NCBI GenBank assembly: GCA_000743035.1
Contig: CP008937.1
Span: 1 to 32,000, forward strand
DNA: 32,000 bases
Direction of reading: 5' to 3'
Source of the DNA: Candidatus Paracaedimonas acanthamoebae
Lineage (GTDB): Bacteria; Pseudomonadota; Alphaproteobacteria; Caedimonadales; Caedimonadaceae
The position numbers and the translations under genes were made by a program. This document shows positions 5,466-30,603 of the stretch, in pieces. The notes below the pieces were generated by a model that saw only the letters and a program-made list of their open reading frames with translations, was not told where the DNA came from and did no database searches. Numbering within the stretch: position 1 is the stretch's first letter; each line of letters begins with the position of its first letter.

Positions 5466-5476
5466 AGGAAAAAACC

Positions 5477-5638: not shown

Positions 5639-6297
5639 AACCTTCTCTTCAAAGCTTTGAATCTTATAAAGCGGCTCAAACAACGGCTCGTCTTTCAACA
5701 ATATGTGCTGTTGTTTTGGGATTAGCCGTCATTGCGCTTGTTTGCCTTATCATTGTGCTTCTTCCTTTAAAAGAGGTGCAGCCTATGCTGGTGACTCTTA
5801 AGGATAAAGGAGAACAAGTGGTTCGCATTGAGCCTATTACACGCAATGAAAAAGCAACAATCCTTCTGATGGAAACGCTTTCTCGTCAATATGTTACTTT
5901 ACGGGAGACCATTGATCTGCAAACAGAAGAGCTCAGGTGGAAGCAATTAAGTCTGATGACAGGTGCTCAATTAAATGACGAATTCATGTCCCTTATGAAG
6001 CCTGAAAATCAAGACTCTCCTTTTAAGAAAAGACAAGAAGAACTAGTGACGCGAGAAATCCAAATCCTCTCAAGCACTTCTTTAGCACCCAGTGCGCCTA
6101 ATATTTATCAAGTGGAGTGGATATCACGTGATCGTCATAAAGGACAAGTAATTGGTCAAGGACATTGGGTTTCAACATTAACAGTCTCCTTAGAACCTCA
6201 GGCAGTCTCAATTGAGGATCAATATATCAATCCTATTGGCTTTACCGTCACCCACTATACGCTTGCTCAGAAAGGAAGTCTTGATGCTCAAAAATAA
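5629..6297 (+). CDS. virB8: VirB8-family T4SS protein (222 aa)
   Basis: Start taken at the internal ATG at 5629 (MDLEPS...). Short cytoplasmic N-terminus, a single TM segment (LSTICAVVLGLAVIALVCLIIVLLPL), and a periplasmic domain containing YVTLRETID. Canonical operon position. Confidence 0.8.
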   Translation: MDLEPSLQSFESYKAAQTTARLSTICAVVLGLAVIALVCLIIVLLPLKEVQPMLVTLKDKGEQVVRIEPITRNEKATILLMETLSRQYVTLRETIDLQTEELRWKQLSLMTGAQLNDEFMSLMKPENQDSPFKKRQEELVTREIQILSSTSLAPSAPNIYQVEWISRDRHKGQVIGQGHWVSTLTVSLEPQAVSIEDQYINPIGFTVTHYTLAQKGSLDAQK

Positions 6298-11625: not shown

Positions 11626-12116
11626 GATATCCCTTTGTTATAACCATGATTGTTTTCTTGACTTTTATGGCCCCAGCCAAAGCCAATCTTTGTTTAAAAG
11701 CCATTGATCTTCTCTCAGATCAAATCAATGTGCCAAAAAAGCTTCTCCTGCAAATTGCTAAAGTTGAAAGTGGCTTTGGTCCTCATAGAGCCCCGTGGCC
11801 ATGGTCAATTCACATTCAAGGCAAAAGTTATTACTTTAAGACGGAGAAAGTCGCTTCAATTTATATCAAGGAGCTTCTGGCTTTGGGGATTGAGAACTTT
11901 GATGTGGGGTGTCACCAGATCAATTATTTCTGGCACAAAGATAAAGTAAATTCGGCTCAAGAGCTGTTAAATCCTTTAAAAAATACCTCAATTGCTGCCC
12001 AGTTTCTTGTCTCCCTTAGAGCTCAGCATCACAGCTGGTTTAAGGCTGTTGCTCATTATCATTCATCCAACCCCCAAAAAGGACTTACTTATGCAAAATT
12101 GGTTTTTCAATCTTAA
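11622..12116 (+). CDS. VirB1-like lytic transglycosylase (SLT domain, 164 aa)
   Basis: ATGA overlap with the virB11 stop. Signal peptide (FLTFMAPAKA) and a catalytic-Glu motif LLLQIAKVESGF, followed by GCHQINYFWH and AVAHYHSSNP. Confidence 0.8.
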   Translation: MRYPFVITMIVFLTFMAPAKANLCLKAIDLLSDQINVPKKLLLQIAKVESGFGPHRAPWPWSIHIQGKSYYFKTEKVASIYIKELLALGIENFDVGCHQINYFWHKDKVNSAQELLNPLKNTSIAAQFLVSLRAQHHSWFKAVAHYHSSNPQKGLTYAKLVFQS

Positions 12117-13974
12117 AAAGATTTTAAGTCAATCCTGGACACTTTTGTGTGTGCCCATTGTCATTTACGCGCGCCCTTGGCTTGAGATGGTCTTTGGCTT
12201 TTATAGCGCTTACGCCTTTTTATGCTTCTTGCCAGGGTTTGTTTCGTTAATTGCTTTTGGCCTTTATCGGATAGAAAGAGGCTCTTTCGCTCCTGTTATT
12301 TTAGGCCTTTTATGTTCTCTGTGGTTTGGGTCTCTATTTACTTATTCTGTGGCCCTGCAAATGATTGTGCCAATCTTGCCAAAGAATATTCTTGAGGTGT
12401 TTTATTTTCTTGAAAAGGTTGAAGTGACATGGCCTTTAATTGCCTCAAGCTCTCTTTTAATTTCTCTTTTTATTGTGACCCATTTAATCAAATATGGCCT
12501 CACCCAGCAAAAAAAAGTCAAACAAGAAAACAGCCATGGATCAGCTCGATTTGCCACATCCCAAGAAATTAAAGCTCTTCATCATGAAAAAGGCATCCCA
12601 GTGGGTTGTCTCATTAAGGGAGAACTATCAACAGATGTTAATGTTCTAAAAAAAGAGGTTCAAACAAGAGGATCTCAAGAAATTATTAGAATGAATCCTC
12701 ATCATATGGTGCTCATTGCTCCAAGTGGAGCTGGCAAAGGAGTTGGCATCATTATCCCAACCCTGCTTGATTATGATGGCCCTGTGCTCGTGACTGATGT
12801 GAAGGCTGCTGAGAACTTTCATGTGACAGCTCGCAGACGAAAAGAGCTTGGCAGAGAAGTTTATGCCCTTGATCCTTTTAAGAAGACAACCCACGAATCA
12901 GGCTCCATTAATATTCTTGATTTTTTAGATCCTGAATCAGAAGAAGTCGTTGATGATGCTGCCATGATTGCCTCCCTCCTTGTTCCTATCCCTACCAACA
13001 TCAATGGAAACTCTAAACATTTCTATGATAGGGCACGATCAATTATTCAAGCCATGATTTTATATGTTGTTTGCTCAGAAGAATTTAGTGTAGAGGAAAA
13101 AACACTTTTTCAAGTTTATAAACTTCTCTGTCAAACAGGAGAAGACTTTAAAGATATGCTTAACTATATCTCTGCACAAGAAGACCTTGCCTATGGTCAA
13201 CCTGCAAGAGTCGCCGCAGCTCTTTTAACAACAGCTCCGGAAGAGATTTCAGGAAGTCTCAATACAGTCAGAAATGAGCTCGGAATCTTTGATAGTCCTT
13301 TAATCCAAAAAGTGACATCAAAATCAACCATTGATCTTAATAAGCTTATCCAAAATAAAGCTGATCTTTTTCTCTGTATTCCTTTAGAAAAGTTAAAATC
13401 ATATAGCAAGCTTATGCGCCTCATCGTTTCAATGGCTTTTTCTATGGCTCAAAAAAATGAACAAAGGGGTCCAATCCCTCTTTTGATGGTTCTTGATGAG
13501 ATGTCATTATTGGGGGCTATTCCCGCAGTTGATGAAGCTTTAGTTGCAGGGAGAGGTTATGGGGTTAAAATTTTAGCTGTGGCACAAAATATAGAACTTA
13601 TTCAGAAGATCTCCCCAGAAGCATGGGAGACCTTCATGGAGAGTAATCTTTTAGCTTTTATTGGGCCCTCAGGTCTTAAAAGTTCAGAATATGTTTCTAA
13701 AATGCTCGGCACCTCTACCATTGAAACGGTCTCTAAAAGTAAAGGTGAGAATCAACAAAAAGGAAGTAAATCTTTTGCTATGTCAGAAAACCAAGGAGAG
13801 TCTCAATCTTATCAAGGACGCCCTATCTTAACAGCTGACGAAGTTCGCTATCTGGGGGAAGATATGGTGCTCGTTTTTTACAAAGGCATACGTCCTATGA
13901 TTCTTAAAAAGATTATTTATCATCGTCATATAGCTTGGAAGAACAAGTATGACCCTAATCCTTTAGAGGAGTAA
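12091..13974 (+). CDS. virD4: VirD4/TraG-family type IV coupling protein (627 aa)
   Basis: Start at 12091 (AAGGA 8 nt upstream). N-terminal TM segments, Walker A APSGAGKGVG, Walker B-like LLMVLDEMSLLG. It is the last gene of the operon. Confidence 0.95.
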   Translation: MQNWFFNLKKILSQSWTLLCVPIVIYARPWLEMVFGFYSAYAFLCFLPGFVSLIAFGLYRIERGSFAPVILGLLCSLWFGSLFTYSVALQMIVPILPKNILEVFYFLEKVEVTWPLIASSSLLISLFIVTHLIKYGLTQQKKVKQENSHGSARFATSQEIKALHHEKGIPVGCLIKGELSTDVNVLKKEVQTRGSQEIIRMNPHHMVLIAPSGAGKGVGIIIPTLLDYDGPVLVTDVKAAENFHVTARRRKELGREVYALDPFKKTTHESGSINILDFLDPESEEVVDDAAMIASLLVPIPTNINGNSKHFYDRARSIIQAMILYVVCSEEFSVEEKTLFQVYKLLCQTGEDFKDMLNYISAQEDLAYGQPARVAAALLTTAPEEISGSLNTVRNELGIFDSPLIQKVTSKSTIDLNKLIQNKADLFLCIPLEKLKSYSKLMRLIVSMAFSMAQKNEQRGPIPLLMVLDEMSLLGAIPAVDEALVAGRGYGVKILAVAQNIELIQKISPEAWETFMESNLLAFIGPSGLKSSEYVSKMLGTSTIETVSKSKGENQQKGSKSFAMSENQGESQSYQGRPILTADEVRYLGEDMVLVFYKGIRPMILKKIIYHRHIAWKNKYDPNPLEE

Positions 13975-13999: not shown

Positions 14000-14263
14000 T
14001 CAGTCTTTATCCACGTTTAACCAAGCATATAAATTCTGAGCAACATATTGCTCAATGAGTCCTCTTAATTCTTCAGGAAACAATGGAGATATTTTCTTTA
14101 GTAGATTCAGAGGAGGTTCTTCGTATGTAGTACTTAAATATTCTAATGACTCTGGAAAATTATGAGAAAGTCTTTCCATGTCATAAATATCAATATTATC
14201 AAAAATTTCCTCAAGTTGAGGTCTGACTTTATCCCATGCGTTCTCAATTTTATTAATATCCAT
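14000..14263 (-). CDS. hypothetical small acidic protein (87 aa)
   Basis: GGAG 9 nt upstream of the ATG on the - strand. Convergent with virD4 across a 25-bp gap. I recognise no motif. Confidence 0.5.
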   Translation of the reverse strand: MDINKIENAWDKVRPQLEEIFDNIDIYDMERLSHNFPESLEYLSTTYEEPPLNLLKKISPLFPEELRGLIEQYVAQNLYAWLNVDKD

Positions 14264-14695
14264 ATATGTAACTCCATGTATTCATGAACATTAATAAAAA
14301 AAGAACACCTTTTAGGCCAGGTGAACATTAAAATTATTTTAAATTGTCGTGTACTTAATTTTTATTGTAAGTTTTATTGAATCAGCAGATCAATTTTATC
14401 TAAATTTTTGACCTTTACTAAAATCAAACCATAATCTTTATGGTAAAAATTTAAAGTTAAATGCTTGCTTCAATGTAAGGAAGTTTTTCCCTTTTGATAT
14501 GATTTGACTGCTGTCTAATATCGTACAATTTATTAGAAATACTTTATAGTAAAGGATAGAAGTTGATGCAAATCATTAAAACTGTAAAACAACTTGCCAA
14601 AATATATGCTATTTTTAAAGCAATACAGAATTATAGGAAATACCTTCCTATCATCATTTCTTTTGGAAAAAGGCTTTATAAAAAAGCAGCTTAAT

Positions 14696-17600
14696 TTAGC
14701 GACTAAATTTAAAAGAAGAGCTTTGCTTGATACTTTGCTCCATCTCTTGTTTATGAATTTGAGCGTGATGCTTAATAGCTTTTTCAAGGCCTAATTCTTG
14801 AGCTTTCATTTTAAGGGAGGGGTCTTGATATACAGCATGAGCATGAAGTCGAGCTTGTTTTAATAGAGCTTTTACTTCTTCTTTTTCTTGCCCTTTGGCA
14901 ACAACGATAGAAGGTAAATTCTTAAGCTTTAACTCGCACTTAAGATACAGATCTAGAGCATTTTCTTCCTGGATTTTTTTAGAATGTAAATCCCAAGCAA
15001 TATCATAATGATATATTTCAGCTTTCTTTTGTATCTCCGCCTCAAGCCCTAAATTGCAAGCTTGTTGCTTAAGATCTTTGTCCTTCCAGATGATATGAGC
15101 ATGGTAGAGAGATTCCTTATTCAACTTCTTTATATGTAATTTTTCTTCACTTTGAGCTTTCATAATGGAAGGTAGGGTTTTTAGTTTTTCTTTACAACTC
15201 AAGTAAAGTTCTAACGCATTAGGGCCATACTTTTCGCTTTCTTCTTGAGAAAAGGCTCCTTGAGTTATTTCTTTTTGGGCATTTGCTGACTTTCCCAATT
15301 GAGGAGAAATAACTTCTGTTTTAGAGGAGTGGAGAGAAGTGTGTTGTGGAAATAGGGTTTCCTTTTGGGGAAGTCTCTTTTTAAATGAAGCAATATCCTT
15401 GAGCACCTCTTGAACAGCAGCAATCCCTTCTTCTTGAAGAATATCATTAAAATCCCGTCCCTTTTCTCCTTGCGGTCTAGTAATGGAGGCTTTGAACCCC
15501 TCCTCTTGAAGTTTCTTTAGATTTTGCTCGGATGATTTCCAAGCCGAAGAGCCTATCTCATCCGCATCACAGCATAAGATGACAGGCTGATCCTTGTCTT
15601 TAATATGGCTCCCTACATTGCGCATGTTGGAAAGGCCTAAAGTTACAAGAATTCTCCCTTGAATGCCAGCTTCTTTTAAAGAGAGGGCTGTCTCAATTCC
15701 TTCTGCGATATAAGTGGGGCCATCCTCTGCTTGGATTTCCACAGCCGTGCCTTTAATTGTCCCTAAAGAGCGCTTCTTCACATCAATATCGGCTTTATTG
15801 GCTGTATTAGGGTCTAAGCATGTCACTTGAGCTGCGGTCAGCTTTCCTTCAGCATCCCTTGCAAAAGCTGCTAAGGCTGGATATATTTTATGGGACTCAT
15901 AATCCTTAAAGCCTAGAATAAACCTTAAATCAGAAGGTAATCCTGCTGTATTAATCTTTCGATGTTCTTTTAAGTACTGCTCAGCAAGCGTTCCTTGAAT
16001 GGGATGGGATGCTTTATAAAGCTTGTTGGTCTTTTCCTGAGATTTTTCTATTTTTAATTGTTCCTCTCGTTCGGTTTGAAGTTTAAGTTCATTCTGTCTT
16101 TGTGCTCCCTCTTCCCAATTGAGGGATGTTAATTGAGGCGCATTAAGCTCTGTTCCTAAATACTTGATGGCTTCGCCGTAACGGATTCCTTGGGATTTGC
16201 TGATATACTTAAAGATGTCTCCCCCTTCACCTGCAGCAAAGTTATACCAAGCTCCAGTCTGACGATTAACCCAAAATTCTTTATATTGACCATAACGGAT
16301 TTCATGAGACTTAATATAGCACTTAGGGTTTGCAACCCATCCTTCAATATGACGCGCAAAGATGCCTTCAATATGAGAAGATGTAAGGCAAGCGAGGACT
16401 TGTTCTCTATCATAAGTATTCACAACCTTTTTCTGGTTGAGATCTATCTCTAAAGAACTCTTCTTCCTCTCAAGTTTAACTTTGTTATTATGGGGGGTGC
16501 CATCAGGGAAATGATCAAGTTTGGAAGTATCGGCGTTAAGAATGGTCCACTGATCCTGAACTTGCTTTTTCTCTCTAAAGGTTGTGAGATCGTGGTATGC
16601 TTGCTCAAGCTCTTGAAGAGTATGAATTGAGAGTTCTTTGCCGTCCTGATGGGCCTTATACCAGCCTTGCTCAAATTTCAATCTCTGGAAGTCAAGGTTT
16701 TCTTGTCTCAAAAGACTATAAAGAGCTTTATCAGCGCTTCCTTGCTCATTAAGTGTATAAGACACAAGATGATCAGCCAGCTTTGTTTTTTCTTCAATAT
16801 TCTTAGATAATTGATAAGCCTCAATTATTGTCCTGCCCTCTCCTAAAACAGCATGCTTTAAGAAGGTTTCTTCTTTAAGACCAAGTTTGCCTACAAAGGG
16901 CTGAATAATGCTATAATGAAAGACAATTTCATAGGCAAGTCTGTCTCTTTTTTGGATTATTTCTTGGATTGATTTTTTATGATTAAAGGAGGCAACTGCC
17001 TTGTAGTGAAGGGAGCGGTATTCTTGAACTTTTTTATAGGCAGCGCGCTCGTTAAAGGTTAACTGATGTTCGTAAGCTTGAGTCTTTCTATGCTCAATAT
17101 ATTGCTCAGCCTGAGACATAACAGCTTTAAATCCTTGAGGCCGCTTCTCATAAAGAGTGCCGCTATAAGTGACATAGGATTTTCCTTGCTCCTTAACTCT
17201 AAAGAAAGGTTTATAAAGGCCTGGAAAGCTTGCTATCTCATAAGCCAGTTCATTCCTGATTTCTTTTATTTTAGCATAATCTTTATATTCAGGATGATTA
17301 TGGGAGAGGGAGCCTGGATGGCTTTGAGAGATGCCTTTCCATAAGCGTCTTGCTTGATCTGCTTTTTTAAAATATTCCTCAACCTTCTCAAGAGCCGCTT
17401 CTTCTGCCATACTTAAAAGTCTTGGCCGTAACCCTGCTTGAACTTCTAAAGTCTCTCGTCTCACACCTGTTTGGTGCATAAACGTAGAGCATTGGCTCCA
17501 ATTTTGAAGAATCTCTGAAGCATCTTTATTCCTTGTCTGAACTAAATCGTTATAGTGGCCCCATTCTTTGTTTAGAGAGATTTTTTTGGCCGATTGCTCG

Positions 17601-20281
17601 GCTTGTAATGTAAGCGCATCAATCTTTATTTTAAGATTGCCAACTTCTTGAGCAATTTTCCAATAATGCTGGACAAGATTAAAGTAAGGTTTTTGCTCGA
17701 CAGAGAGATCATAGTCGGTTGACAATCCTTTATAATCTGATCGTGCCACATGACTTACCATTCCTTTAAGATCAGAAGCGATCCCTTTCGATACATACCC
17801 TTTAAAGGTTTCCTTGTGACGGGTTAACCATATGAGAAGCTGGTTGCTATTAAAGGAGCTAAAGAAGCCATAAGTATGATCAAAGGTAGCTCCTTGAGAT
17901 TTATTGATCGTGACTGCATACCCATGGGTCAGAGAATCATAAGACTTTGAATCGAAGCCAACGAGTCTTCCATCATGAAGCCTGACTTCAACAGTTTGTC
18001 TCTTCAAATCAAATGATTCTATAACTCCAAGCGTCCCATTCTTCACTCCAACTCTATCATTCTTGCCTTTTTCAAGCGTTTGCACATGTCTTTCATGATG
18101 ATCATTCTCAAGAAACATGACGCGATCCCCGACCGCAAAACGCCTTCCATAAGCAGATTTTCTAAAGTGGTGTGTTTTAGGTCCTTGAAATGATTGCTTA
18201 GGGTCAAAGATTCCTTCTCGCCCAAATATAAATTCATTTCCTAGTTTTCCTTGAGACATAAGAGCTTCCCGAATAAGCTCATTAAGTTCAACGACGTCCT
18301 TATTTTTCTGAGCTAAAGCCATATGGGTTTGATAAGGAGATAGAGCAATTCCCTCTAAGTAATCAGCAACAAGAGAGATCTTCGCCTCAAAATCACGCTC
18401 TCTAAAATCAAAGTGGTCGCGTTCATAATAAGGTTTTAGACCATCTTCAATGCAATGCTCATTTAAAAGGGATGAGGCTTCGCGCATCCATGGCTCATCT
18501 TGGCGAACAACGCTTTTAATCTCATAAGCGCCTATCTTCTCTTCAATAAGCCGTGCCGCATCAAGACCATGAAGGGCTTTAATTTGATTATTGTCTTGCA
18601 CAATTTTAAGACAAGCGCCTGATCTTTCAATCTCTTGAAGAAGGCCTTTCCACAAAGCCCCATGGACCATACTGCCTTCATCAAGAATTATCACATGCTT
18701 GTTGGTGAGGCGCCATTTTTGAAGCCTCTCAATTTCAGCCTTCGTTTTAGTAAGGGCTTGGCCTTTAAGTTCTTTGTTTTCAATAAGCCTTTTATATTTA
18801 TCTTGGTCATCCCACTTGCACTTCAGCTGATCCAACGTATATCCTTCAATACCCAGTTCACTTGAGAGTTGATCTGCCACTTTTCCTTGGAAAGATGTCC
18901 CTATCACCGTAAATCCTGATTGCTTATAAGCCTCAACCACAGGCTTAAGGACGGTACTCTTTCCTGTTCCAGCTTTACCTGTGAGAACACTCATAGCTTG
19001 ATTAGAAAGGAGATGATTGATGGCCCCTAACTGCTCTTCAGAGAAAGTTATTCTTTCTTCTTTTTGAGTGCGTTCGATCGAAATAAGTTTATACTTTTCC
19101 TTAATGAAAGATGTTTCTTTTGCCTTTAAAATTTCAACTTTCTCAGCAATTAACGTTTCAAGATTTTTCATTTCAAGTGACGTATAAAACGCCTGGCCTT
19201 TGATGTTCTCTCCTAAATAAATGGCATGCTCTTGAGACAAAAGCTTGGCCGTGACACTCTCTATCGTCCTTGAATAATCTCCCTTATCAAATTGAATACT
19301 CTTGCTTTCATAAAGGTGATTATCATTGAGGGTCTTTCCAATCATGGCAATGGAGGGGAGTTCAATGCCATCCACTTTTGCTTTTAAAATGGCGTAGAGT
19401 TTTTCGTCACCCCCCACACGTTTAAAAATTTCACGGCATAAATCCACTTGCGTAAAAACGGCTTTTTGAGACGCCACAACCTTGATGAGTTCTTCAGGAT
19501 GGTTGAGGAGAATCTCAATGTTTTTTTGTCGGATTTCTTCGTTATCTTGAACATTTCGGCTGAGCTCTTGCAGACGATGCCTGGCATTGGGTCCTAAATG
19601 TTTTGTGGCCACAAGTTTAATGCCTTGGTCTTTGTAAGAGCGGTGATCAAGATGATAATCATAGCCTCTTTCTTGAGCAAAGTGATTACTGATTTGAGCC
19701 ATCTGTTTTCTGATTTCAACAAGCTCTGGCTTCTTAATAAAAAAGCGCCTTTCTGCAAAGCTTCCATCAACAAGAGGGCGGGTTGTTGCCATGATATGGA
19801 GATGGGGGTTACCCTTCATATCATGAATGGCATATTGAGCCACGAGGCCATGAGCGACATAACACTCTTTAACAATTCTCTCAGAAAGTTCTATTAAATG
19901 TTGCTTATTTGTGATCTCAAGAGGGAGTGCAAAGTTAGCTTTATACGCTGTAAGACATGAGGACAAAAACTTCTCTTTTGCAGCAAGGCTTTTGGCATTT
20001 TTAACTTCATCTTTGTGCCCTCTGTATCTTTTATTGGCAATATAATCTTCAAAATCTTCTACCGTTTTCCAAAGAGTTTCAGCATCATAAACCCACTCAC
20101 GGGAGCCTTCTGGAGAAATGATATTTGAAGATAGGACTTCTTTAGCTTTTTGGGTGTAATCCCACGTAGAGCCAGTGCGCTCTTCAACCATTATGGTTGC
20201 AGCAATATAAGCAGCGTGTGATGCAACAGAGCCTGCTGCAGATCGTGTAAGACAACTTAAGTGTGCATGATAGATAGCCAT
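14696..20281 (-). CDS. traA: TraA-like fusion protein (1861 aa): MobA/MobL (MOBQ) relaxase + RecD/TraA_Ti-type helicase + Toprim primase
   Basis: N-terminus MAIYHAHLS... with Tyr25 in SHAAYIAA, which matches RSF1010 MobA (MAIYH..., Y25). His-triad YAIHDMKGNPHLHIM. Walker A LTGKAGTGKST (about nt 18952-18987), Walker B VIILDEGSM, motif TINKSQGATFD. Toprim motifs YIAEGIETALSL (about nt 15672-15710) and VILCCDADEIG (about nt 15553-15580). Primase zinc-ribbon-like segment WYNFAAGEGGDIFKYI (about nt 16201-16255). Confidence 0.95.
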   Translation of the reverse strand: MAIYHAHLSCLTRSAAGSVASHAAYIAATIMVEERTGSTWDYTQKAKEVLSSNIISPEGSREWVYDAETLWKTVEDFEDYIANKRYRGHKDEVKNAKSLAAKEKFLSSCLTAYKANFALPLEITNKQHLIELSERIVKECYVAHGLVAQYAIHDMKGNPHLHIMATTRPLVDGSFAERRFFIKKPELVEIRKQMAQISNHFAQERGYDYHLDHRSYKDQGIKLVATKHLGPNARHRLQELSRNVQDNEEIRQKNIEILLNHPEELIKVVASQKAVFTQVDLCREIFKRVGGDEKLYAILKAKVDGIELPSIAMIGKTLNDNHLYESKSIQFDKGDYSRTIESVTAKLLSQEHAIYLGENIKGQAFYTSLEMKNLETLIAEKVEILKAKETSFIKEKYKLISIERTQKEERITFSEEQLGAINHLLSNQAMSVLTGKAGTGKSTVLKPVVEAYKQSGFTVIGTSFQGKVADQLSSELGIEGYTLDQLKCKWDDQDKYKRLIENKELKGQALTKTKAEIERLQKWRLTNKHVIILDEGSMVHGALWKGLLQEIERSGACLKIVQDNNQIKALHGLDAARLIEEKIGAYEIKSVVRQDEPWMREASSLLNEHCIEDGLKPYYERDHFDFRERDFEAKISLVADYLEGIALSPYQTHMALAQKNKDVVELNELIREALMSQGKLGNEFIFGREGIFDPKQSFQGPKTHHFRKSAYGRRFAVGDRVMFLENDHHERHVQTLEKGKNDRVGVKNGTLGVIESFDLKRQTVEVRLHDGRLVGFDSKSYDSLTHGYAVTINKSQGATFDHTYGFFSSFNSNQLLIWLTRHKETFKGYVSKGIASDLKGMVSHVARSDYKGLSTDYDLSVEQKPYFNLVQHYWKIAQEVGNLKIKIDALTLQAEQSAKKISLNKEWGHYNDLVQTRNKDASEILQNWSQCSTFMHQTGVRRETLEVQAGLRPRLLSMAEEAALEKVEEYFKKADQARRLWKGISQSHPGSLSHNHPEYKDYAKIKEIRNELAYEIASFPGLYKPFFRVKEQGKSYVTYSGTLYEKRPQGFKAVMSQAEQYIEHRKTQAYEHQLTFNERAAYKKVQEYRSLHYKAVASFNHKKSIQEIIQKRDRLAYEIVFHYSIIQPFVGKLGLKEETFLKHAVLGEGRTIIEAYQLSKNIEEKTKLADHLVSYTLNEQGSADKALYSLLRQENLDFQRLKFEQGWYKAHQDGKELSIHTLQELEQAYHDLTTFREKKQVQDQWTILNADTSKLDHFPDGTPHNNKVKLERKKSSLEIDLNQKKVVNTYDREQVLACLTSSHIEGIFARHIEGWVANPKCYIKSHEIRYGQYKEFWVNRQTGAWYNFAAGEGGDIFKYISKSQGIRYGEAIKYLGTELNAPQLTSLNWEEGAQRQNELKLQTEREEQLKIEKSQEKTNKLYKASHPIQGTLAEQYLKEHRKINTAGLPSDLRFILGFKDYESHKIYPALAAFARDAEGKLTAAQVTCLDPNTANKADIDVKKRSLGTIKGTAVEIQAEDGPTYIAEGIETALSLKEAGIQGRILVTLGLSNMRNVGSHIKDKDQPVILCCDADEIGSSAWKSSEQNLKKLQEEGFKASITRPQGEKGRDFNDILQEEGIAAVQEVLKDIASFKKRLPQKETLFPQHTSLHSSKTEVISPQLGKSANAQKEITQGAFSQEESEKYGPNALELYLSCKEKLKTLPSIMKAQSEEKLHIKKLNKESLYHAHIIWKDKDLKQQACNLGLEAEIQKKAEIYHYDIAWDLHSKKIQEENALDLYLKCELKLKNLPSIVVAKGQEKEEVKALLKQARLHAHAVYQDPSLKMKAQELGLEKAIKHHAQIHKQEMEQSIKQSSSFKFSR

Positions 20282-21863: not shown

Positions 21864-22394
21864 ATGAACGATAGGCCCAAACTCACGATCAAAAAGCCCT
21901 TAAGCCCAGAAAAGCACTCTCAACTCTTCCAAGCTTTAAAGCCATTACAAACACAAGCTGTAAAAGGAAAGCAAAAAGAACTTCAAGAGCAGAAGCAAAA
22001 AGAGAGAGAGGCACAGAAAAAGAAGAGAGCAGCAACTAAAATAGCTTTAAAATGGCTTTATGAACAATTTCCCGCTTGCTTTAATCCTAAAGACTTAAAG
22101 CCGCTTAAACTTCATATTGATAAAGACATTTTATCTTTTCTTGGAAAAGAGAACTCTCCTTCAAAGGTTAAATTGAGATATGCTCTTACCTATTACACTA
22201 ATAACATTGACTATCTTGAGGCTGTTATAAAAGGCACACATCGGTATGACTTAGAAGGCCATCAGGGAGAAGAGATTACTGCAGAACAAAAAGCATATGC
22301 TCAAGAAAAACTTGAGAGAATTCTTCAAGCAATTAAAGATAAAAAACATCCTAAAAATAAGTCATTCACACAAGAAGAAGCAGACAAACCCTAA
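21864..22394 (+). CDS. ProQ/FinO-family RNA chaperone (176 aa)
   Basis: ALKWLYEQFPACFNPKDLKPLKLHIDKDILSFL...SKVKLRYALTYYTNNIDYLEAVIKGTHRYDLEGHQGEEIT aligns by eye with the E. coli ProQ N-terminal domain ([29 protein letters not shown]...[35 protein letters not shown]). Confidence 0.85.
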   Translation: MNDRPKLTIKKPLSPEKHSQLFQALKPLQTQAVKGKQKELQEQKQKEREAQKKKRAATKIALKWLYEQFPACFNPKDLKPLKLHIDKDILSFLGKENSPSKVKLRYALTYYTNNIDYLEAVIKGTHRYDLEGHQGEEITAEQKAYAQEKLERILQAIKDKKHPKNKSFTQEEADKP

Positions 22395-23505: not shown

Positions 23506-23931
23506 ATGAATCCTTTACCCTTAGCCTCTAATCTTTTTCCTTCTTATCACCCTTTACCCTTTTATTTCATGCAGGTTACAGCTGGTTTCCCTTCTCCAGC
23601 GTTAGATTATCGAGAAAAATCCCTAGACCTTAACGAGCATTTAATCCCTAATCCTGTCTCTACTTTTTTTATGCGGGCGACAAATGATGCTCTCAAAGAA
23701 TCAGGTATTTTAGCAGGTGATCTTTTAATCGTTGATCGTAGTTTAAAGCCTCACTCAGGATGTATTGTTATTGCAGGTATAGCAGGTGAACTTTGTATCA
23801 GGCGTTTTGAAAGAATGGATAAGAAAATAATCCTTAAAACAGACGAGTATTATAATGAGCCTTTTTTCTTGAGGGCTGAGGATGAACTCCAAATATGGGG
23901 GGTCGTCACAGCCGCCATCCACTCTCTCTAA
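23506..23931 (+). CDS. umuD: UmuD-like S24-fold protein (141 aa) with a substituted catalytic dyad
   Basis: Aligns without gaps to E. coli UmuD around GFPSPA..Y and GDLLIVD. UmuD S60 corresponds to Ala62 (GCT at 23689-23691) and K97 to Arg99 (AGG at 23800-23802). Its stop overlaps the umuC start (TAATG). Confidence 0.85.
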
Positions 23932-25181
23932 TGCGGAAAATAGCTCTTGTTGATATGAACAACTTTTATGTTTCCTGTGAGCGCGTCTTTCGACCTGACT
24001 TAGGGAATAAACCTGTCGTTGTCTTAAGCAACAACGATGGCTGTGCCATTGCAAGGTCCAATGAAGCTAAAACCTTAGGAATTAAAATGGGGGAGCCTTA
24101 TTTTAAGTTTAAAGAAATTGCTCAAAAGATGGATATGGCTATCTTTTCTTCAAACTATACCCTCTATCAAGACTTCTCTCATCGAATTATGGCTTTACTA
24201 AAATCTCAAGTCCCCCTCATGGAAGTCTACTCCATTGATGAAGCTTTTCTTGATTTAACACATGTTCCTGAAGAGGAGCTTTTTTCCTTTTGTCAGCATC
24301 TCAAAGATCAAGTAAGGCAATATTTAGGAATTCCAATTTCAATTGGGGTCTCTTTAACTAAAACGCTCGCTAAAGTTGCTAACCATTTTGCGAAAAAATC
24401 TGAAGGAGTCTTTATTCTTCTTGATGAAAAAGAAATCCATACTTTTTTGAGTCGTCTCCCTGTAAATGAGATTTGGGGCATTGGGCGCAATCATACAAAG
24501 TACTTGCTTACCCAAGGGATTGATACAGCCCTTAAGCTTAAACAAGCCCCTCCTAAATGGATTCGCCAAAAAATGAGTGTTGTGGGTGAGCGGATTGTGA
24601 CTGAGCTTAATGGGAAAATTGCTTATGACTTTGAAGAAGACTTAGCTTCTAAAAAAATGATAACGGTTTCACGCTCATTTCCAAAAGATGTGACCTCTTA
24701 TGAAGAATTAGAATGGGCTATTTGTTCTTTTATTGAAAGGGCAACTGAAAAATTAAGAGAAGAAAGAATGCTTGCCCAAAAATTAGGGATCTTTATTAAG
24801 ACGAATCGCTTTAGTGAAGGGACCTACTACAGTAATTTTCAGCTTATTCACCTTGATGTTGCAAGCCACTACACTCCCTCTTTTATTACGGCTGGTAAGA
24901 AGGCTTTAAAGGATATCTATAAACCTCACCTTGCTTATAAGAAAGCAGGCGTATGTCTCTTAAGTTTAAGGTCACAAGAAGAATTTCAAGCGTCATTCTT
25001 GAGCCAAATTTCTTCAAAAAAAGAGCAATTAATGCTAACGCTTGATAAACTTAATCAAAGATACGGCAAAAGGACTGTCAGTTACGGAGCTGTTAATCAA
25101 GCAACAACTTCCATCACGCACCGCCAATTTCTTTCTCCCCACTACACAACAAGCTGGAATGAACTCCCAAAAGTTAAGTGA
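23931..25181 (+). CDS. umuC: UmuC-like Y-family DNA polymerase (416 aa)
   Basis: [24 protein letters not shown]...[10 protein letters not shown]...[10 protein letters not shown] are hallmark Y-family (Pol V) motifs. Translationally coupled to the umuD-like gene. Confidence 0.95.
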
Positions 25182-25432: not shown

Positions 25433-26749
25433 ATGAATTTTAAAAGGTTTACTATTCTAAGCATCTTTTTAACCCTCTTGTCTTTTCTTAATTCGGCTTG
25501 TGGAACTGAGTACAGCATTTATTCTTTTACAGGGGAAAATGAAGAAGAGAAAAAGAATATTAGAGAGATTTGCCGCGCACATACTAGAGCAAATGGTAAA
25601 GAATTTTTTAAAGTGACTGGCGATGAAGTTATTGCAGTAGCTAATGTTTATCATGCTTTAAAGAAAGATAAAAATATTGATGAACTCCTGGGTGTCCATA
25701 ACTTTTTTTGGGGCTCAAAGTTGGTAGGCTTTTTATACGTAAAAATGGATTACCGTATTGCTGACGCGACAAATGCCTATGCAGAATGCCAAGTCCTGCT
25801 TCACCCTAAATATCGAGGCCAAGGACTGGGGACATTATTTCGCAAGAAATTTAATGAAGAAATGGTTAATACTCGGGTTGGCCAGCCTTTGAAGGTTATA
25901 ATGGCAAGAGTGGATTGCCAGCTAGAAGAGCATCCACGCATAATCAATTTTCAAGGGGTAAAAGGTTACATTCATATTGATAATATTGCTTCTCGCAAGC
26001 TTATGATGCGGCTAGGTTGTATTCCTGTAGACTTAGGTTACAGTAAATATATGGGCTCGTCTGGTGATAACGTTGCGCAGATTCTATATATTTACCCACC
26101 TAATAACGCCCATTCATTTTTAACTAAAGATATACAAGAAACTATTATGAGCAATAATACTACAACCAAACCCCAAATTGTTGAGATTGCGCGTCAACGT
26201 CAAGCAGACATAGAATATGAAACAGAACTTACATTAAGAGCTGGGAGTATTCTTACGCAAACGGGAAATTTTGAAAGCTTATTTACTTTCTTAAAAGACT
26301 TTTCAAAAGAGAAAGGAAGGATGTTTCCTGAAGGAAGGTTTATGAGATTCATGCAATATCAGCTACATGCGAATAAGAGCAATAGAATTCAATGTGAGCA
26401 GATAAAAAATAGCGTCTCTAGGATAATCCAGAGCAATTTGTATTATTTTCCTCTGTTTGCCGCAGATAAGAATATATTAAATGATGAAGCATGCTACGAG
26501 CTTGCAGTCCGCTACCGCAAAGGAATTGCTGACTTATTGCCACTCAAGCCTCAATATCAGAATGCTTTATTGTTATTCTTACCTTTAGCACATAAAGGAA
26601 ATGCTAAAGCACAACATAATTTGGGAATGCTGTATTATTACCAAGGAAATTACACAGAAGCTGTGAAATGGTGGGAAGAGTCTTCAAAGAGAGGGGTTAA
26701 GGAATCAAAAAATAATTTAGTAAAGCTAAAAAAAGAGGTTAAGCTATAA
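25433..26749 (+). CDS. signal-peptide GNAT acetyltransferase-domain protein with a C-terminal Sel1-like repeat (438 aa)
   Basis: GAGAGG RBS. N-terminal hydrophobic leader FTILSIFLTLLSFLNSAC. GNAT motif A VLLHPKYRGQGLGTLF. C-terminal AKAQHNLGMLYYYQGNYTEAVKWWEESSKRG is Sel1/TPR-like. Confidence 0.75.
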   Translation: MNFKRFTILSIFLTLLSFLNSACGTEYSIYSFTGENEEEKKNIREICRAHTRANGKEFFKVTGDEVIAVANVYHALKKDKNIDELLGVHNFFWGSKLVGFLYVKMDYRIADATNAYAECQVLLHPKYRGQGLGTLFRKKFNEEMVNTRVGQPLKVIMARVDCQLEEHPRIINFQGVKGYIHIDNIASRKLMMRLGCIPVDLGYSKYMGSSGDNVAQILYIYPPNNAHSFLTKDIQETIMSNNTTTKPQIVEIARQRQADIEYETELTLRAGSILTQTGNFESLFTFLKDFSKEKGRMFPEGRFMRFMQYQLHANKSNRIQCEQIKNSVSRIIQSNLYYFPLFAADKNILNDEACYELAVRYRKGIADLLPLKPQYQNALLLFLPLAHKGNAKAQHNLGMLYYYQGNYTEAVKWWEESSKRGVKESKNNLVKLKKEVKL

Positions 26750-26845
26750 GGTAGCATTAAAGAATTATTGAGCCAAAAATGTATATTAAGTCTTTGTGAA
26801 GTTAAGTTTGAAAAGGCCATTGTAAATTAGAGGGGAGACATCAGT

Positions 26846-28795
26846 ATGATATACTTTACGCATAAATATTTATCTATTTTATTCTATGTTTTTTGCTTAA
26901 TCCAAGCCTTACCAATCGCAGCAAGCCAAGAACAAGAAGATCAATCTAAAATACTTAAGGCACCTTTTGTAGATCAGAGAGGAAAACAAAAAGCTCAAAG
27001 AGAGGAAGAGGGCAAACACAAAACGCTGGGTCTCGACCATGGTTCTGCTAGCTCGAGCTCACCTGAAAGTATAGATATTTCTAAAGACGAGACGCAACTT
27101 CTCCGAGAACTGTCTCAAGAAATAGATTATACGTTCAAAAAGCCTGAGCTTTTACATTTAGCTTTAAGGCACAGTACCACTGATATTGGACATTCCCATT
27201 CATCGCGAGGATATGAACGTCTAGAATTCTTAGGTGATGCTGTCTTAGAGCATGTAATACGAGAATTTTTATGGAAGGATTTTCCGAAACTTAATGCCAA
27301 TCAATTATCAAAAATTTGTTCTACACTTACCTGCAATGAAACTCTTGCTCACTTATCAAAACACTTAAGACTTGCAGCAATATCTAAAAGATTAAAGCTA
27401 TCCACCTTTACAAGAGAAGAAACCTTACAATCTCATCGACAAGCTGATTTTGTCGAATCCCTCATTGGCGCCATTTATAGCGATGGGGGAATAGAAGCAA
27501 GCCATAAATTTTTTAAGAGATATTATACAAGTGAAAGAGCTCCAACCTTTATTTCTAATATTATGAATTCTATCTCTCAAGAAGCTATTGAAGAAAGCCC
27601 GCTTTCTGCTTTATTCAGTAACAATCTTTATAAGAGAGCCTTTTATGAATTTTCTCAGTTTGAAGGCTTTCAATTTGTGGGGGAGGGCATCCTTAGATTT
27701 ATTCTCCGTGATATGCTTTATCATCGCTTTCCTGAAAGCACAGAAGGGGAGCTTGTTCAAAAGTATAATAGTCTGATTTCTGCAGAAAGCTTATCTGCAA
27801 TAGTAACGCAATATAACTTAAATCCTCACCTTAGTAAGCATTCTTTAAAATCATTTTTAGGCTTATTGTATCTTGATAAAGGGTTAGAATCAGTCCAAAA
27901 CTTTATTCTTTGGCACTGGACAGGAGAAGAAGCTCCTAAAGCAGTTGTTGGTGCCCTTGAAAAAAGGATGGACTCAGTGCCTTCCCTTGAATCATCTTAT
28001 TTTGTAAGCCTTCCTGCTCGTACCCAAATACAATTTACACCAAAAAATATTCTTCAAGAAGTTTTACAGATGCTGCGTGATGAGCCTTACTATTCTCATG
28101 AGAAAACAGGCCCAGATCATAATCCTACCTTTACAGTAACTGTTCAGTCTAAGTTAGAACACTTTAAGTCACTGCAAGGGCAGGCTGGTAGATTGCTTGA
28201 CGCTCAACAAGAAGCAGCTCAAAAAGCTCTTGATATTTTATCTGTTAAAGTGTTGCTTACAACTATTGGAAACAAGGAAGACGCCGTTAAAAATGTGGGC
28301 TATTGCCTTAAGCTTTTAGAAGCTAAATTACGTTCCTTAGGCATTAGAGAATTTAGCTACCATAAAATTGCTAAAAGCCCTTATTTAAAGAACAATATTT
28401 ATCGCTTTGAGCTTCAAGGGAAAAACGTTTATCCAACTTTTGGGGAAGACGAAACTATAGAAGCGGCCTTATTACAAGCGCTGGGCAAAGGGATATTCAA
28501 ACTGTGTAGGGCAGAATATAAGAAAGCTGCTCACAGTGTAAAAGGGACTCATCAAGATATCCCTTTAGAAGATAACCGCCTTATATTTTTAAAAAGTATT
28601 TTGGAAGAAACACTGAAGCCTCTAGGGTATGAAAACTTTACTTATATCCCTCATTCAAAAAGTAAAGAAAAAATACAGCCATATTTAGTATATGAGATTC
28701 AAGTCGGGAGTTTAAGACCGGCTAAAGGACAAGGGCTTACACCCCTTCAGGCTCAGATTAACGCATTACAAGGATTGCTGGATTCTATGGTCTAA
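26846..28795 (+). CDS. signal-peptide protein (649 aa) with tandem RNase III domains (one intact, one degenerate) and one clear dsRBD plus two dsRBD-like repeats
   Basis: GAGGGGAGA RBS. Leader LSILFYVFCLIQALPIAAS|Q. RIIID-a has YERLEFLGD (27215-27238) and QADFVESLIGAIYSDGG. RIIID-b has FEGFQFVGE (27662-27685) and HSLKSFLGLLYLDKG. The dsRBD has PKNILQEVLQ...GPDHNPTFTVTV...AQQEAAQKALDIL. Confidence 0.85.
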   Translation: MIYFTHKYLSILFYVFCLIQALPIAASQEQEDQSKILKAPFVDQRGKQKAQREEEGKHKTLGLDHGSASSSSPESIDISKDETQLLRELSQEIDYTFKKPELLHLALRHSTTDIGHSHSSRGYERLEFLGDAVLEHVIREFLWKDFPKLNANQLSKICSTLTCNETLAHLSKHLRLAAISKRLKLSTFTREETLQSHRQADFVESLIGAIYSDGGIEASHKFFKRYYTSERAPTFISNIMNSISQEAIEESPLSALFSNNLYKRAFYEFSQFEGFQFVGEGILRFILRDMLYHRFPESTEGELVQKYNSLISAESLSAIVTQYNLNPHLSKHSLKSFLGLLYLDKGLESVQNFILWHWTGEEAPKAVVGALEKRMDSVPSLESSYFVSLPARTQIQFTPKNILQEVLQMLRDEPYYSHEKTGPDHNPTFTVTVQSKLEHFKSLQGQAGRLLDAQQEAAQKALDILSVKVLLTTIGNKEDAVKNVGYCLKLLEAKLRSLGIREFSYHKIAKSPYLKNNIYRFELQGKNVYPTFGEDETIEAALLQALGKGIFKLCRAEYKKAAHSVKGTHQDIPLEDNRLIFLKSILEETLKPLGYENFTYIPHSKSKEKIQPYLVYEIQVGSLRPAKGQGLTPLQAQINALQGLLDSMV

Positions 28796-29075
28796 TTTCA
28801 TGACTCTACCTTTTTTGCCAATCCTGCTAGTTTGCTCCCTTATTTCAAACCTGCAACATGTATGTTGCTGAGGAGCCTATGAGACTTGTAGGCTGGAAGA
28901 GGTGACTTTGAAGTTGCAACAAGACACCAAATCTGAGGTTCTGATAAGAGCCCTCTTCCAATTGGTCTAGAGCTGGACAGCAGTATCTTAAAAAAAGGGA
29001 TTCTCCCTTATTCTGAATTCACATGACAAGCTAAAGACTCAAATAATCATATCAGTAGAGGGAAGGAAAAAAAAG

Positions 29076-29405: not shown

Positions 29406-29526
29406 GATGAAAGTACCGAATTAAAAAACGTCTTTCGTCCTTTAGTATTTTCTGGCATGATAGTGTTCAAATTTTGTCATGGTATTGATAATAAATTTAC
29501 CGATACAGACTATTGTAGGAACTTTT

Positions 29527-30603
29527 ATGCCCCAGGAAATATTATCGTTGACGACTCTCGAAAGCCTTCAACATAAAAAGCTGCTTAATGATATTGTGCA
29601 GCTCATTCATCATGGTCAGCAGCGAGTAGCTACTGAAGTAAACTCTACGATCGTTCTCCTTTATTGGTCTATTGGCAAAAGAATTAATGATGAGCTGTTA
29701 GAGGAAAAGCGCGGTGAATATGGTGACAAAGTTATTGAAAGTGTTGCACAGCAGCTGAGTATTGAGTTTGGAAAAGGCTATAGTCGATCTGCATTATTTC
29801 GAATGGTCCGTTTTGCAAAGTTGTATCCTGATTCTGAGATTGTCGCAACGGTGTCGCGACAATTGTCCTGGTCGCACATTATTATTTTATGTCAGATAGA
29901 AGATGAGCTTCAACGAGATTTCTATATGCAGATGTCGTGTGTTGAGAGATGGAGTGTGCGCGTGCTGCGCCAGAAATTGGATTCCATGCTTTTTGAACGC
30001 ACAGCTATTAGTGCTCAACCCAAAAAAGTGATTGCGCATGAATTGGAAAAGTTCAAACAAACTCAACAACTCACCCCTCAACTGGTATTTAGGGATCCAT
30101 GTATCCTTGACTTTATGGGATTGGGGACAAAATATTCAGAATTTGATTTGGAAAGCGCCATATTAGATCATATCACCGAATTCATCCAAGAACTGGGAAC
30201 AGATTTTTGCTTTTTAGCTCGCCAAAAACGTATGGCTACAAAAAATAAAGACCGTTATTTAGACTTACTTTTCTTTCATAGGGGAATGCGCCGGTTGGTT
30301 GCTATTGAACTCAAGATGGGAGACTTTGAGCCTGAGCATAAGGGACAGATGGAATGGTATTTACGTTGGTTGGATAAAAATGAACGTAAAGAAGGAGAAG
30401 AAAAGCCCATAGGCATTATTTTATGTGCCAACAAGGACCAAGAAGATGTTGAGTATCTTGAACTAGATCAAACAGGGATCCATGTCGCTCAGTATTTGAC
30501 CGAACTACCCCCTAAACAACTTTTAGAAGAGAAATTACATGCTGCTATTGCTTACGCTCGGCAGCAGCATGAATTTTTGAGCCTTGATTTAGATAAATCA
30601 TGA
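29527..30603 (+). CDS. YhcG/DUF1016-family PD-(D/E)XK nuclease (358 aa from 29527; alternative ATG at 29479)
   Basis: N-terminal LLYWSIGKRINDELL...RGEYGDKVIESVAQQL...GYSRSALFRMVRFAKLYPD and the C-terminal nuclease core YLDLLFFHRGMRRLVAIELKMGDFEPEHKGQMEWYLRWLD are typical of DUF1016. AGGAA 8 nt upstream of 29527. Confidence 0.85.
   Translation: MPQEILSLTTLESLQHKKLLNDIVQLIHHGQQRVATEVNSTIVLLYWSIGKRINDELLEEKRGEYGDKVIESVAQQLSIEFGKGYSRSALFRMVRFAKLYPDSEIVATVSRQLSWSHIIILCQIEDELQRDFYMQMSCVERWSVRVLRQKLDSMLFERTAISAQPKKVIAHELEKFKQTQQLTPQLVFRDPCILDFMGLGTKYSEFDLESAILDHITEFIQELGTDFCFLARQKRMATKNKDRYLDLLFFHRGMRRLVAIELKMGDFEPEHKGQMEWYLRWLDKNERKEGEEKPIGIILCANKDQEDVEYLELDQTGIHVAQYLTELPPKQLLEEKLHAAIAYARQQHEFLSLDLDKS

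Follow-up and report, generated by a model that had tools for sequence, protein, structure and literature searches.

The stretch of DNA analysed here (the window, 32,000 nucleotides (nt) long) comprises positions 1 to 32,000 of contig CP008937.1 and belongs to Candidatus Paracaedimonas acanthamoebae, a species once called Ca. Caedibacter acanthamoebae; exact matches of neighbouring proteins, with IM40_ locus tags, place it on a plasmid of 148 kb. Towards its end lies a gene for a protein of the RNase III superfamily, in which a putative export signal precedes two tandem RNase III domains (RIIIDs), only the first of them with an intact catalytic site, and three modules with the predicted fold of a double-stranded RNA-binding domain (dsRBD). 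In current classifications, intramolecular tandem RIIIDs are a eukaryotic trait, that of Drosha and Dicer, and bacterial RNase III is a cytoplasmic homodimer. The small conserved family described below, from protist-associated bacteria, breaks both of these textbook rules, with the two halves fused and one of them dead, and with a predicted signal for export.

The gene and its product

The open reading frame (ORF) list gives an ORF at 26846-28795 on the plus strand, with an ATG start and a length of 649 amino acids (aa), an exact match to an earlier prediction made from the sequence alone (the original prediction). Its Shine-Dalgarno sequence, GAGGGGAG, is a strong ribosome-binding site. The gene can be divided into the following features:

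26830..26837, plus strand: Shine-Dalgarno GAGGGGAG, 8 nt before the ATG, read from the sequence
26846..28795, plus strand: complete coding sequence (CDS) of the predicted exported tandem-RIIID RNase III family protein, from the ORF list, Pfam, NCBIfam and PDB matches and the ortholog P0198
26846..26923, plus strand: signal-peptide-like N-terminus, aa 1-26, from a heuristic hydrophobicity scan; modelled as a helix at 2-21, then disorder
26924..27082, plus strand: charged disordered linker, aa 27-79, with a predicted local distance difference test score (pLDDT) <50 for aa 25-77; unconserved in the family alignment
27083..27541, plus strand: RIIID-a, aa 80-232, catalytically intact (PF00636 E 3.5e-21)
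27215-27238, plus strand: ERLEFLGD of RIIID-a, aa 124-131 (E124, E127, D131)
27446-27469, plus strand: DFVESLIG of RIIID-a, aa 201-208 (D201, E204)
27611..27931, plus strand: RIIID-b, aa 256-362, degenerate (PF00636 41.6 bits alone); model all-helical and packed on RIIID-a
27662-27685, plus strand: EGFQFVGE of RIIID-b, aa 273-280 (E41 to Q, D45 to E)
27839-27862, plus strand: HSLKSFLG of RIIID-b, aa 332-339 (D114 to H, E117 to K)
28028..28270, plus strand: canonical dsRBD, aa 395-475, with a GPDH loop (PF00035 E 8e-10; alpha-beta-beta-beta-alpha model)
28283..28546, plus strand: module 2, a divergent dsRBD fold, aa 480-567, modelled as alpha-beta-beta-beta-alpha; homologous to module 3
28559..28792, plus strand: module 3, a divergent dsRBD fold, aa 572-649, from hhalign to the first dsRBD (dsRBD1) of the family; modelled as alpha-beta-beta-beta-alpha

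Two RNase III domains, one of them degenerate

Pfam finds in the 649-aa protein two copies of Ribonuclease_3 and one dsrm at aa 399-465. When aa 229-396 are scanned alone, PF00636 is again found (E 2.4e-10; 41.6 bits, the cut-off being 27), with a match that spans only profile positions 3-61 of 102, the first 60%. Because this region clears the Pfam threshold for RNase III by itself, it is genuinely a second RIIID and no fortuitous run of helices, and the possibility of an unrelated helical region raised with the original prediction falls. The four motifs that the prediction had quoted (ERLEFLGD, DFVESLIG, EGFQFVGE and HSLKSFLG) are all present at the residues listed above. RIIID-a has the residues of the RNase III superfamily, with the four acids E41, D45, D114 and E117 (E. 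coli numbering) in place. RIIID-b has lost both D114 and E117, so the protein does not have the two functional sites of the Drosha/Dicer type; its residues and the predicted pairing of its domains correspond to the type with one live and one degenerate RIIID known from the KREN/KREPB proteins, here in cis and not in trans. The residue E117 bridges both catalytic metals and is essential in RNase III (PMC3867540).

The protein does not fit the definition of class-1 RNase III (TIGR02191) either, with its two RIIIDs, three dsRBD-fold modules, 649 aa and putative export signal. Its score against this rnc equivalog model, 167.6 for a cut-off of 166.25, is reached only by adding three stretches. Among the Pfam matches of the protein there are no PAZ, platform, helicase or CED domains.

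The last 185 residues have no Pfam match. Modules 2 and 3 of this C-terminal region are nevertheless homologous to each other (hhalign 97.6%, E 2.7e-12), and module 3 also aligns with the canonical dsRBD1 of the family (85%, E 6e-6), its matches to PDB profiles being weak and nearly all to dsRBD proteins such as Staufen, TARBP2, PKR and ADAR. Module 2 gives no hhalign signal to dsRBD1 and only noise when its profile is compared with the PDB, and its assignment as a dsRBD comes from the structure model and from its homology to module 3. Pfam, hhalign and the structure model thus bear out one canonical dsRBD followed by two mutually similar modules of predicted dsRBD fold, as the original prediction had it. 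The RNA-contact motifs GPxH and KKxAK are absent from modules 2 and 3, and the ligand of these modules may accordingly be a protein and not RNA. In P0060 and P0061, both from the family, a canonical dsRBD stands where the query has module 3.

A predicted intramolecular pseudo-dimer

A full-length AlphaFold2 model, built on the 19-sequence family alignment, reaches a mean pLDDT of 81 and a predicted template modelling score (pTM) of 0.77. It begins with a helix at aa 2-21 and continues with a linker predicted as disordered, as previously proposed, at aa 25-77, followed by two all-helical domains (~aa 80-228 and 252-358) and three alpha-beta-beta-beta-alpha modules (aa 399-474, 484-565 and 576-648). 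In this model RIIID-b is a complete helical RIIID, ~18 residues shorter.

A second model restricted to the core (aa 78-372) has a pLDDT of 87.9 and a pTM of 0.88, so that the relative placement of both RIIIDs is well determined, and RIIID-b sits on the canonical dimer face of RIIID-a in 5/5 models. In Foldseek comparisons with the PDB, the query-normalised TM scores (TMq) of the core are 0.61-0.68, over 330-390 columns, for the RIIID pairs of Drosha, Dicer, DCL1, DCL3 and DCL4, whereas the TMq with the single-domain bacterial chains 1o0w, 7r97, 2nug and 1jfz is only 0.37-0.43; both domains therefore superpose together on the canonical RNase III dimer. The packing of RIIID-a and RIIID-b as a Drosha/Dicer-like intramolecular pseudo-dimer, central to the original prediction, is in this way supported as a high-confidence structural prediction. 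The full model also matches multi-dsRBD partners of Dicer, namely TARBP2 (7zpk_C, 2e-8) and Loqs-PB (8dfv_K, 1e-7), as well as TRBP dsRBD1-2 and R2D2 (7v6c_B).

A small family with a conserved dead site

When 1.84 billion cluster representatives were scanned exhaustively with HMMER, with the family defined by E <1e-30, 18 proteins were obtained, the weakest of them at 6e-43; the next match, at 1e-26, is the start of generic RNase III. A profile search with the 19-sequence alignment was dominated by generic RNase III and added no further family members. In a scan of a genome collection, for which the family alignment supplied the universal RNase III signature as pattern, the matches listed were ordinary rnc genes. 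Two subtypes can be distinguished: full-length proteins with tandem RIIIDs, the dsRBD and the two C-terminal modules, and proteins with the signal and the tandem RIIIDs followed by unrelated TPR-like or coiled-coil tails. The tandem RIIIDs of a short subfamily (P0005-7, P0054, P0056, P0058, P0059) come without any dsRBD. Across the family, the architecture is kept at 25-40% identity. Only two members hold a taxonomic label, the query and P0005, which comes from an alphaproteobacterial metagenome-assembled genome.

The equivalents of D45 and E117 in RIIID-a are invariant in the 18 family members. None of them has D114 or E117 in RIIID-b, where the E117 position is taken by Lys or Arg in 12/18, and the structural Phe and Gly of the RNase III signature are kept. 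The substitution of the second site noticed in the query is thus a family-wide trait.

A full-length ortholog, P0198, is 93% identical to the query and occurs in two independent metagenomes, with the same start and the same upstream gene for a protein with GNAT and TPR motifs. From the few changes between both sequences (33 synonymous and 47 non-synonymous), the Nei-Gojobori dN/dS comes to 0.38 for the whole protein and to 0.10 for RIIID-a, which is the segment under the strongest purifying selection.

As a side observation, P0001, P0002, P0060 and P0061 end in long Lys/Asn-rich basic tails, whose role could be that of a translocation signal, a nuclear-localisation signal or an RNA-binding extension; the C-terminus of the query is not basic.

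Probable bacterial origin of the two domains

The nearest relatives of RIIID-a are ordinary bacterial RNases III: it scores 87 bits with a 234-aa protein and 60.9 bits with the E. coli enzyme (7r97), against 37-40 bits per domain with Drosha, which tops the PDB sequence list because both of its domains add to the score. By mean distance, RIIID-a and RIIID-b are both nearest to bacterial class-1 enzymes. In a quick neighbour-joining bootstrap with 130 domains, short ones, and 138 columns, RIIID-a was monophyletic in 172/200 replicates, RIIID-a and RIIID-b were sisters in 1/200, and any grouping with eukaryotic RIIIDs appeared in 0/200. A transfer from eukaryotes to bacteria can be set aside, since neither the per-domain scores nor the bootstrap give any eukaryotic affinity. 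A recent internal duplication is likewise unsupported, as RIIID-b scores only ~29 bits with the RIIID-a of the family and the two hardly ever group as sisters. Both domains look bacterial in origin and not derived from eukaryotes. Since they are nearest to bacterial class-1 enzymes and never grouped with eukaryotic ones, the likeness to Drosha and Dicer is, to judge from sequence comparison, architectural convergence and not transfer from eukaryotes. The label "Drosha/Dicer-like" of the original prediction consequently holds for the modelled architecture and not for the phylogeny.

The putative export signal

The N-terminus of the query has K7 in its n-region, a hydrophobic core at aa 8-26 with a maximum Kyte-Doolittle 10-residue window of 2.68, and a candidate cleavage site IAA|SQE. 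By a home-made rule, which asks for a 10-residue Kyte-Doolittle mean >=1.9 (that is, of at least 1.9) near the N-terminus, then small residues at -3/-1, 15/19 family sequences are signal-peptide-like, compared with 0/94 ordinary RNases III of 200-260 aa; the exceptions in the family are either a probable start-codon miscall (P0057, from M66) or borderline cases. In the N-termini of the family, Lys or Arg stand before the hydrophobic core and acidic residues after it, and this distribution of charges would therefore place the enzyme outside the cytoplasm. The Sec-type N-terminus first noticed in the query is hence conserved and specific to the family by hydrophobicity and the -3/-1 rule, and the tandem-RIIID protein is predicted to be exported through Sec.

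Comparison with known RNase III proteins

With Drosha and Dicer, the best structural matches at TMq 0.63-0.68, the protein shares two RIIIDs per chain, a predicted intramolecular pseudo-dimer and a C-terminal dsRBD, but it differs from them in its dead RIIID-b (both sites are active in those enzymes), in the absence of PAZ, helicase, platform and CED domains, in its bacterial source and in its putative export signal. In sequence, RIIID-a and the first dsRBD are closest to class-1 Rnc (TIGR02191), with the same catalytic tetrad. Rnc, however, is a cytoplasmic homodimer of ~225 aa per chain with two active sites, whereas the query has a dead second RIIID, two extra dsRBD-fold modules and a signal peptide-like N-terminus.

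Dimers with one functional site are known from the RNA-editing endonucleases KREN1-3 of trypanosomes, paired with the degenerate KREPB4/5, and from engineered E. coli RNase III heterodimers (PMC3867540). The KREN/KREPB proteins are separate polypeptides with zinc-finger (ZnF) and PUF modules in the mitochondrial editosome, whereas the query joins its live and its dead domain in one bacterial protein that is predicted to be exported. The chloroplast protein RNC1 also carries tandem RIIIDs in one chain with catalytic residues lost, as in RIIID-b of the query, but it has no active domain at all and functions in splicing, as a factor, while RIIID-a of the query is intact.

Two further likenesses concern the proposed function. 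The class-1 RNases III of SPCSV (CSR3), of an iridovirus (PPR3) and of an ascovirus are parasite enzymes directed against host dsRNA or small interfering RNA (PMC4352025) and offer an analogy to the role proposed for the query; their homodimers, of chains with a single RIIID and a dsRBD, arise in the cytoplasm of the host. SrnA of Legionella pneumophila is a Sec-dependent secreted RNase by which a bacterium that infects amoebae grows better inside cells (PMC6617341), with an unrelated RNase T2 fold, single-strand specificity and a proven type II (T2SS) secretion route.

Tandem RIIIDs are not unique to the query outside eukaryotes. With a local hidden Markov model of the RIIID, other small tandem-RIIID proteins with one degenerate site were found on bacterial-looking contigs (P0008, P0024, P0098, P0124, P0158 and P0160). 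The order is dead-active-dsRBD in P0008 (L090, 3844-4920), on a contig with an integrase, and dead-active in P0024 (L091, 734-2005), where the next gene of L091 has a faint RNase III match. In P0098 (L092, 3733-5166) and P0124 the order is active-dead, with a hydrophobic signal-like N-terminus, and leucine-rich repeat (LRR), integrase and primase genes on the contig. All these proteins fall outside the 18-cluster family (E ~1e-18, against <1e-43), and none has the triple dsRBD-fold tail. In addition, RNase III proteins of giant viruses in BFVD match the tandem core with TMq of 0.52-0.61 at an identity of only 11-16% (Satyrvirus A0A3G5AGS1, Bodo saltans virus A0A2H4UV56 and Marseillevirus LCMAC101 A0A481YRQ0), which suggests, from the models, that giant viruses of protists may also have tandem RIIIDs.

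The statement of the original prediction that no bacterial system of this architecture had been described agrees with our full-text literature searches, which found no description of a bacterial tandem-RIIID protein or of an exported RNase III, but sequence databases do hold other uncharacterised, bacterial-looking proteins with tandem RIIIDs. The family is real, conserved and undescribed, and it is not a categorically new system, as tandem RIIIDs occur elsewhere outside eukaryotes. Fusion of two RIIIDs together with loss of one site appears repeatedly outside eukaryotes (the query family, P0008/P0024, P0098/P0124 and giant viruses), and this repetition bears on the possible origin of the Drosha/Dicer architecture.

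A proposed function

Ca. P. acanthamoebae is a symbiont of the order Holosporales that lives in the cytoplasm of Acanthamoeba (PMC11909080). The symbiont would make the protein as a Sec-exported member of the RNase III superfamily, and after export RIIID-a and RIIID-b of one chain would pair as an intramolecular pseudo-dimer. In this pseudo-dimer RIIID-a alone would carry the metal-binding catalytic site, and RIIID-b, as a conserved pseudo-enzyme, would provide the second half of the dsRNA-binding valley. The canonical dsRBD and the two degenerate dsRBD-fold modules would hold and select the substrate, adding affinity and selectivity, or dock a partner, and at each binding event one strand of a dsRNA, or one arm of a hairpin, would be cut. 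Such one-strand cutting is expected because a live site in RIIID-a is joined to a conserved dead RIIID-b in a pseudo-dimer in cis. RNase III dimers and heterodimers with a single functional site do nick one strand of dsRNA, and the KREN/KREPB pairs are thought to exploit this property (PMC3867540).

The substrates would be structured or double-stranded RNAs of the host Acanthamoeba, the most likely target because the bacterium lies naked in the amoeba cytoplasm, and the protein would then be a host-directed effector. Genes next to the family homologs code for patatin, F-box, eukaryote-type Ser/Thr kinase, ankyrin/Sel1, LRR and BRCT proteins, neighbours that are typical of bacteria living inside eukaryotes. 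The plasmid of the query also carries a P-type VirB/D4 type IV secretion system, whose relation to the RNase III gene is one of proximity. A host-directed role is judged the most likely one because of the cytoplasmic life of the bacterium, the putative export signal and these effector-like neighbours. There are two precedents: the secreted RNase SrnA promotes the growth of Legionella in amoebae (PMC6617341), and viral RNase III enzymes suppress RNA interference (RNAi) (PMC4352025). Cleavage of a single strand, passage through the outer membrane and a host target are all steps that we infer, and an exported, single-site and host-directed enzyme for nicking or processing dsRNA of Acanthamoeba has, in our judgement, about an even chance of being the right description.

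Several observations weigh against this description. The signal call comes from a home-made rule, and the hydrophobic core of the query is long (~19 residues) and could be a membrane anchor. No secretion route across the outer membrane was identified, in a search that did not extend to the symbiont chromosome, and a review of the Holosporales mentions the type VI secretion system and not the T2SS (PMC11909080). Three family members are substituted in RIIID-a itself, P0060 with E41 to A and both P0058 and P0059 with D114 to N, and catalysis may not be the conserved function in every one of them. In the dsRBD and the C-terminal modules dN/dS is near 1, a value that comes from very few changes. 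AlphaFold was run on monomers only, which leaves room for RIIID-a:RIIID-a homodimers. A collection of 15 billion proteins holds no record that equals the product of the ORF or is >90% identical to it; flanking genes of the same plasmid do have records (AIL13639.1, AIL13642.1 and AIL13624.1), and GenBank may lack an annotation of the ORF or list it as a pseudogene.

A bolder version of the host-directed reading would make it the first RNase III-type effector of a bacterium against the small-RNA machinery of the host. Exported into the cytoplasm of the amoeba, it would nick Dicer substrates or hairpin precursors, or dock Dicer by its degenerate, TRBP/Loquacious-like dsRBDs, and so disable or rewire RNAi. 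We regard this version as doubtful; if true, it would parallel the silencing suppressors of viruses, with an intramolecular RIIID dimer that arose separately in protist symbionts of the Alphaproteobacteria. The protein offers a candidate route by which endosymbionts of amoebae could interfere with RNA silencing or processing in their hosts, a topic on which our literature searches found no data. Should host dsRNA be nicked on one strand, this would be a new type of bacterial effector, and a natural single-site RNase III of this kind could be used as a strand-specific dsRNA nickase.

Other explanations have to be weighed against a host-directed nickase. The exported protein could instead be a non-specific degrader of host RNA, a scavenger of nucleotides for a symbiont whose own biosynthesis is reduced; such a role has been suggested for secreted or periplasmic RNases. 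The conserved export signal and the obligate intracellular life of the producer would suit such a role, and so would the T2SS-secreted RNase SrnA, which aids the growth of Legionella in amoebae in a manner thought to be degradative (PMC6617341). RNase III, though, is specific for dsRNA and leaves large products, and is thus ill-suited to scavenging, while the conserved dead second site and the three dsRBD-fold modules point to substrate selectivity, so that we consider this explanation unlikely.

A mainly non-catalytic protein, which would bind or sequester dsRNA, or mimic TRBP, Loquacious or R2D2 and dock host Dicer through its degenerate dsRBDs, with its nuclease activity secondary or lost, seems to us rather unlikely. 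Silent tandem RIIIDs do exist, as in RNC1, RIIID-a is altered in some family members (E41 to A or D114 to N), the GPxH and KKxAK motifs are wanting in modules 2 and 3, and the full model matches TARBP2, Loqs-PB and R2D2, multi-dsRBD partners of Dicer. On the other side, D45 and E117 of RIIID-a are invariant in 18/18 members, this same domain is under the strongest purifying selection, and the short subfamily keeps the tandem RIIIDs without dsRBDs.

A third explanation takes the protein as a paralog of rnc, either cytoplasmic or tethered to the membrane with the N-terminal helix as an anchor, acting on RNAs of the bacterium or the plasmid, for instance antisense duplexes that control transfer or copy number. 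The gene is indeed plasmid-borne, with a ProQ/FinO gene 4.5 kb upstream, its NCBIfam score is barely over the rnc equivalog cut-off (167.6 vs 166.25), and its hydrophobic core is long for a signal peptide. Nevertheless, the charge distribution would put the enzyme outside the cytoplasm, small -3/-1 residues recur in the family, most homologs are chromosomal and unlinked to transfer genes, and a dead second site makes a poor substitute for rnc; the explanation is in our view quite improbable.

Equally improbable is a class-1-like enzyme, in which two molecules would dimerise through RIIID-a, with two active sites and double-strand cuts, and RIIID-b would be an accessory binder of RNA or protein. 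That RIIID-a is most similar to ordinary bacterial RNase III (87 bits; 60.9 bits with 7r97) would be compatible with it, and monomer runs of AlphaFold could not display such a homodimer; but RIIID-b covers the dimer face of RIIID-a in 5/5 models with a pTM of 0.88, and the retention of its Phe and Gly together with the loss of its acids is the pattern expected of a retained dimer partner. Finally, the chance of an artefact, be it two genes fused by a frameshift, an assembly error or a pseudogene in decay, to which the missing protein record next to neighbours with GenBank accessions and the location of the ORF among insertion sequence (IS) fragments might point, is practically nil, given the intact 649-aa frame with its strong ribosome-binding site, the same architecture in 18 clusters, the 93%-identical full-length P0198 in two metagenomes and the dN/dS of 0.38, which together make this a single intact gene.

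The plasmid and its genomic neighbourhood

The window carries VirB, VirD4 and relaxase genes of a conjugation apparatus, which upholds the conjugative-element setting assumed from the beginning. Its other features are:

1228-13974: VirB4, B6, B8, B9, B10, B11, an SLT lytic transglycosylase and VirD4 of a P-type VirB/D4 type IV secretion system (T4SS)
14696-20281, minus strand: relaxase of 1861 aa, with MobA/MobL relaxase, RecD-like helicase, DUF7146 and Toprim primase domains
21864-22394: ProQ/FinO-domain RNA chaperone gene, 4.5 kb upstream of the RNase III gene
23506-25181: umuD-umuC pair (S24 peptidase and Y-family polymerase)
25433..26749, plus strand: GNAT + TPR/Sel1 gene, upstream of the RNase III gene and co-oriented with it (Pfam; GenBank AIL13642.1)
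29479-30603: downstream gene for a YhcG/DUF1016 PD-(D/E)xK nuclease, matching the candidate single-gene phage-defence model PDC-S02 (E 2.5e-122)

A YhgA-type transposase gene, and an IS110 fragment that follows the RNase III gene, complete this picture. The plasmids of Ca. P. acanthamoebae had been noted for their P-type vir T4SS operons, in a paper from which the RNase is absent (PMC5751055). When 20 kb of the window were compared with PLSDB by megablast, no match was found, and tblastn with the coupling protein gave only ~27% identity to plasmids of Xanthomonas and Roseobacter, which is uninformative. Inside the T4SS operon, between virB10 and virB11, there is an 808-aa ORF without a Pfam match (8271-10697), and the GC content falls to 30% at 14001-15000, between virD4 and the relaxase gene, a stretch that could be an origin of transfer (oriT) or a regulatory region.

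Among the family homologs, most are chromosomal and unlinked to transfer genes, and one of them adjoins ffh-rpsP-trmD. Another YhcG homolog, at 11297-12382 of L088, is found 1.5 kb away from P0053, a member of the family. An anti-phage defence role was considered and rejected, as neither the RNase III gene nor the GNAT-TPR gene has a PADLOC match.

The protein encoded by the upstream GNAT-TPR/Sel1 gene has a hydrophobic N-terminus of its own. A sigma-70 scan of the region upstream of the RNase III gene found no promoter on the plus strand, for which reason both genes may be co-transcribed. The region upstream of the RNase III gene is 100% identical in L084, the locus of the ortholog, and this identity takes in the 3' end of the GNAT-TPR/Sel1 gene and the spacer between both genes (1-330 of L084); from this, the two genes appear to travel as a pair.

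Over 26516-28900 of the window, the comparison with L084 shows 1 difference in the ~400 nt that cover the upstream region and the 5' end of the gene and ~4% differences within the CDS, clustered at 27116-27215, 27316-27415 and 28216-28315, an uneven divergence that may reflect a recombination mosaic. The similarity between both loci stops ~100 nt past the stop codon of the RNase III gene, where an IS110 fragment follows in the window and a resolvase fragment in L084.

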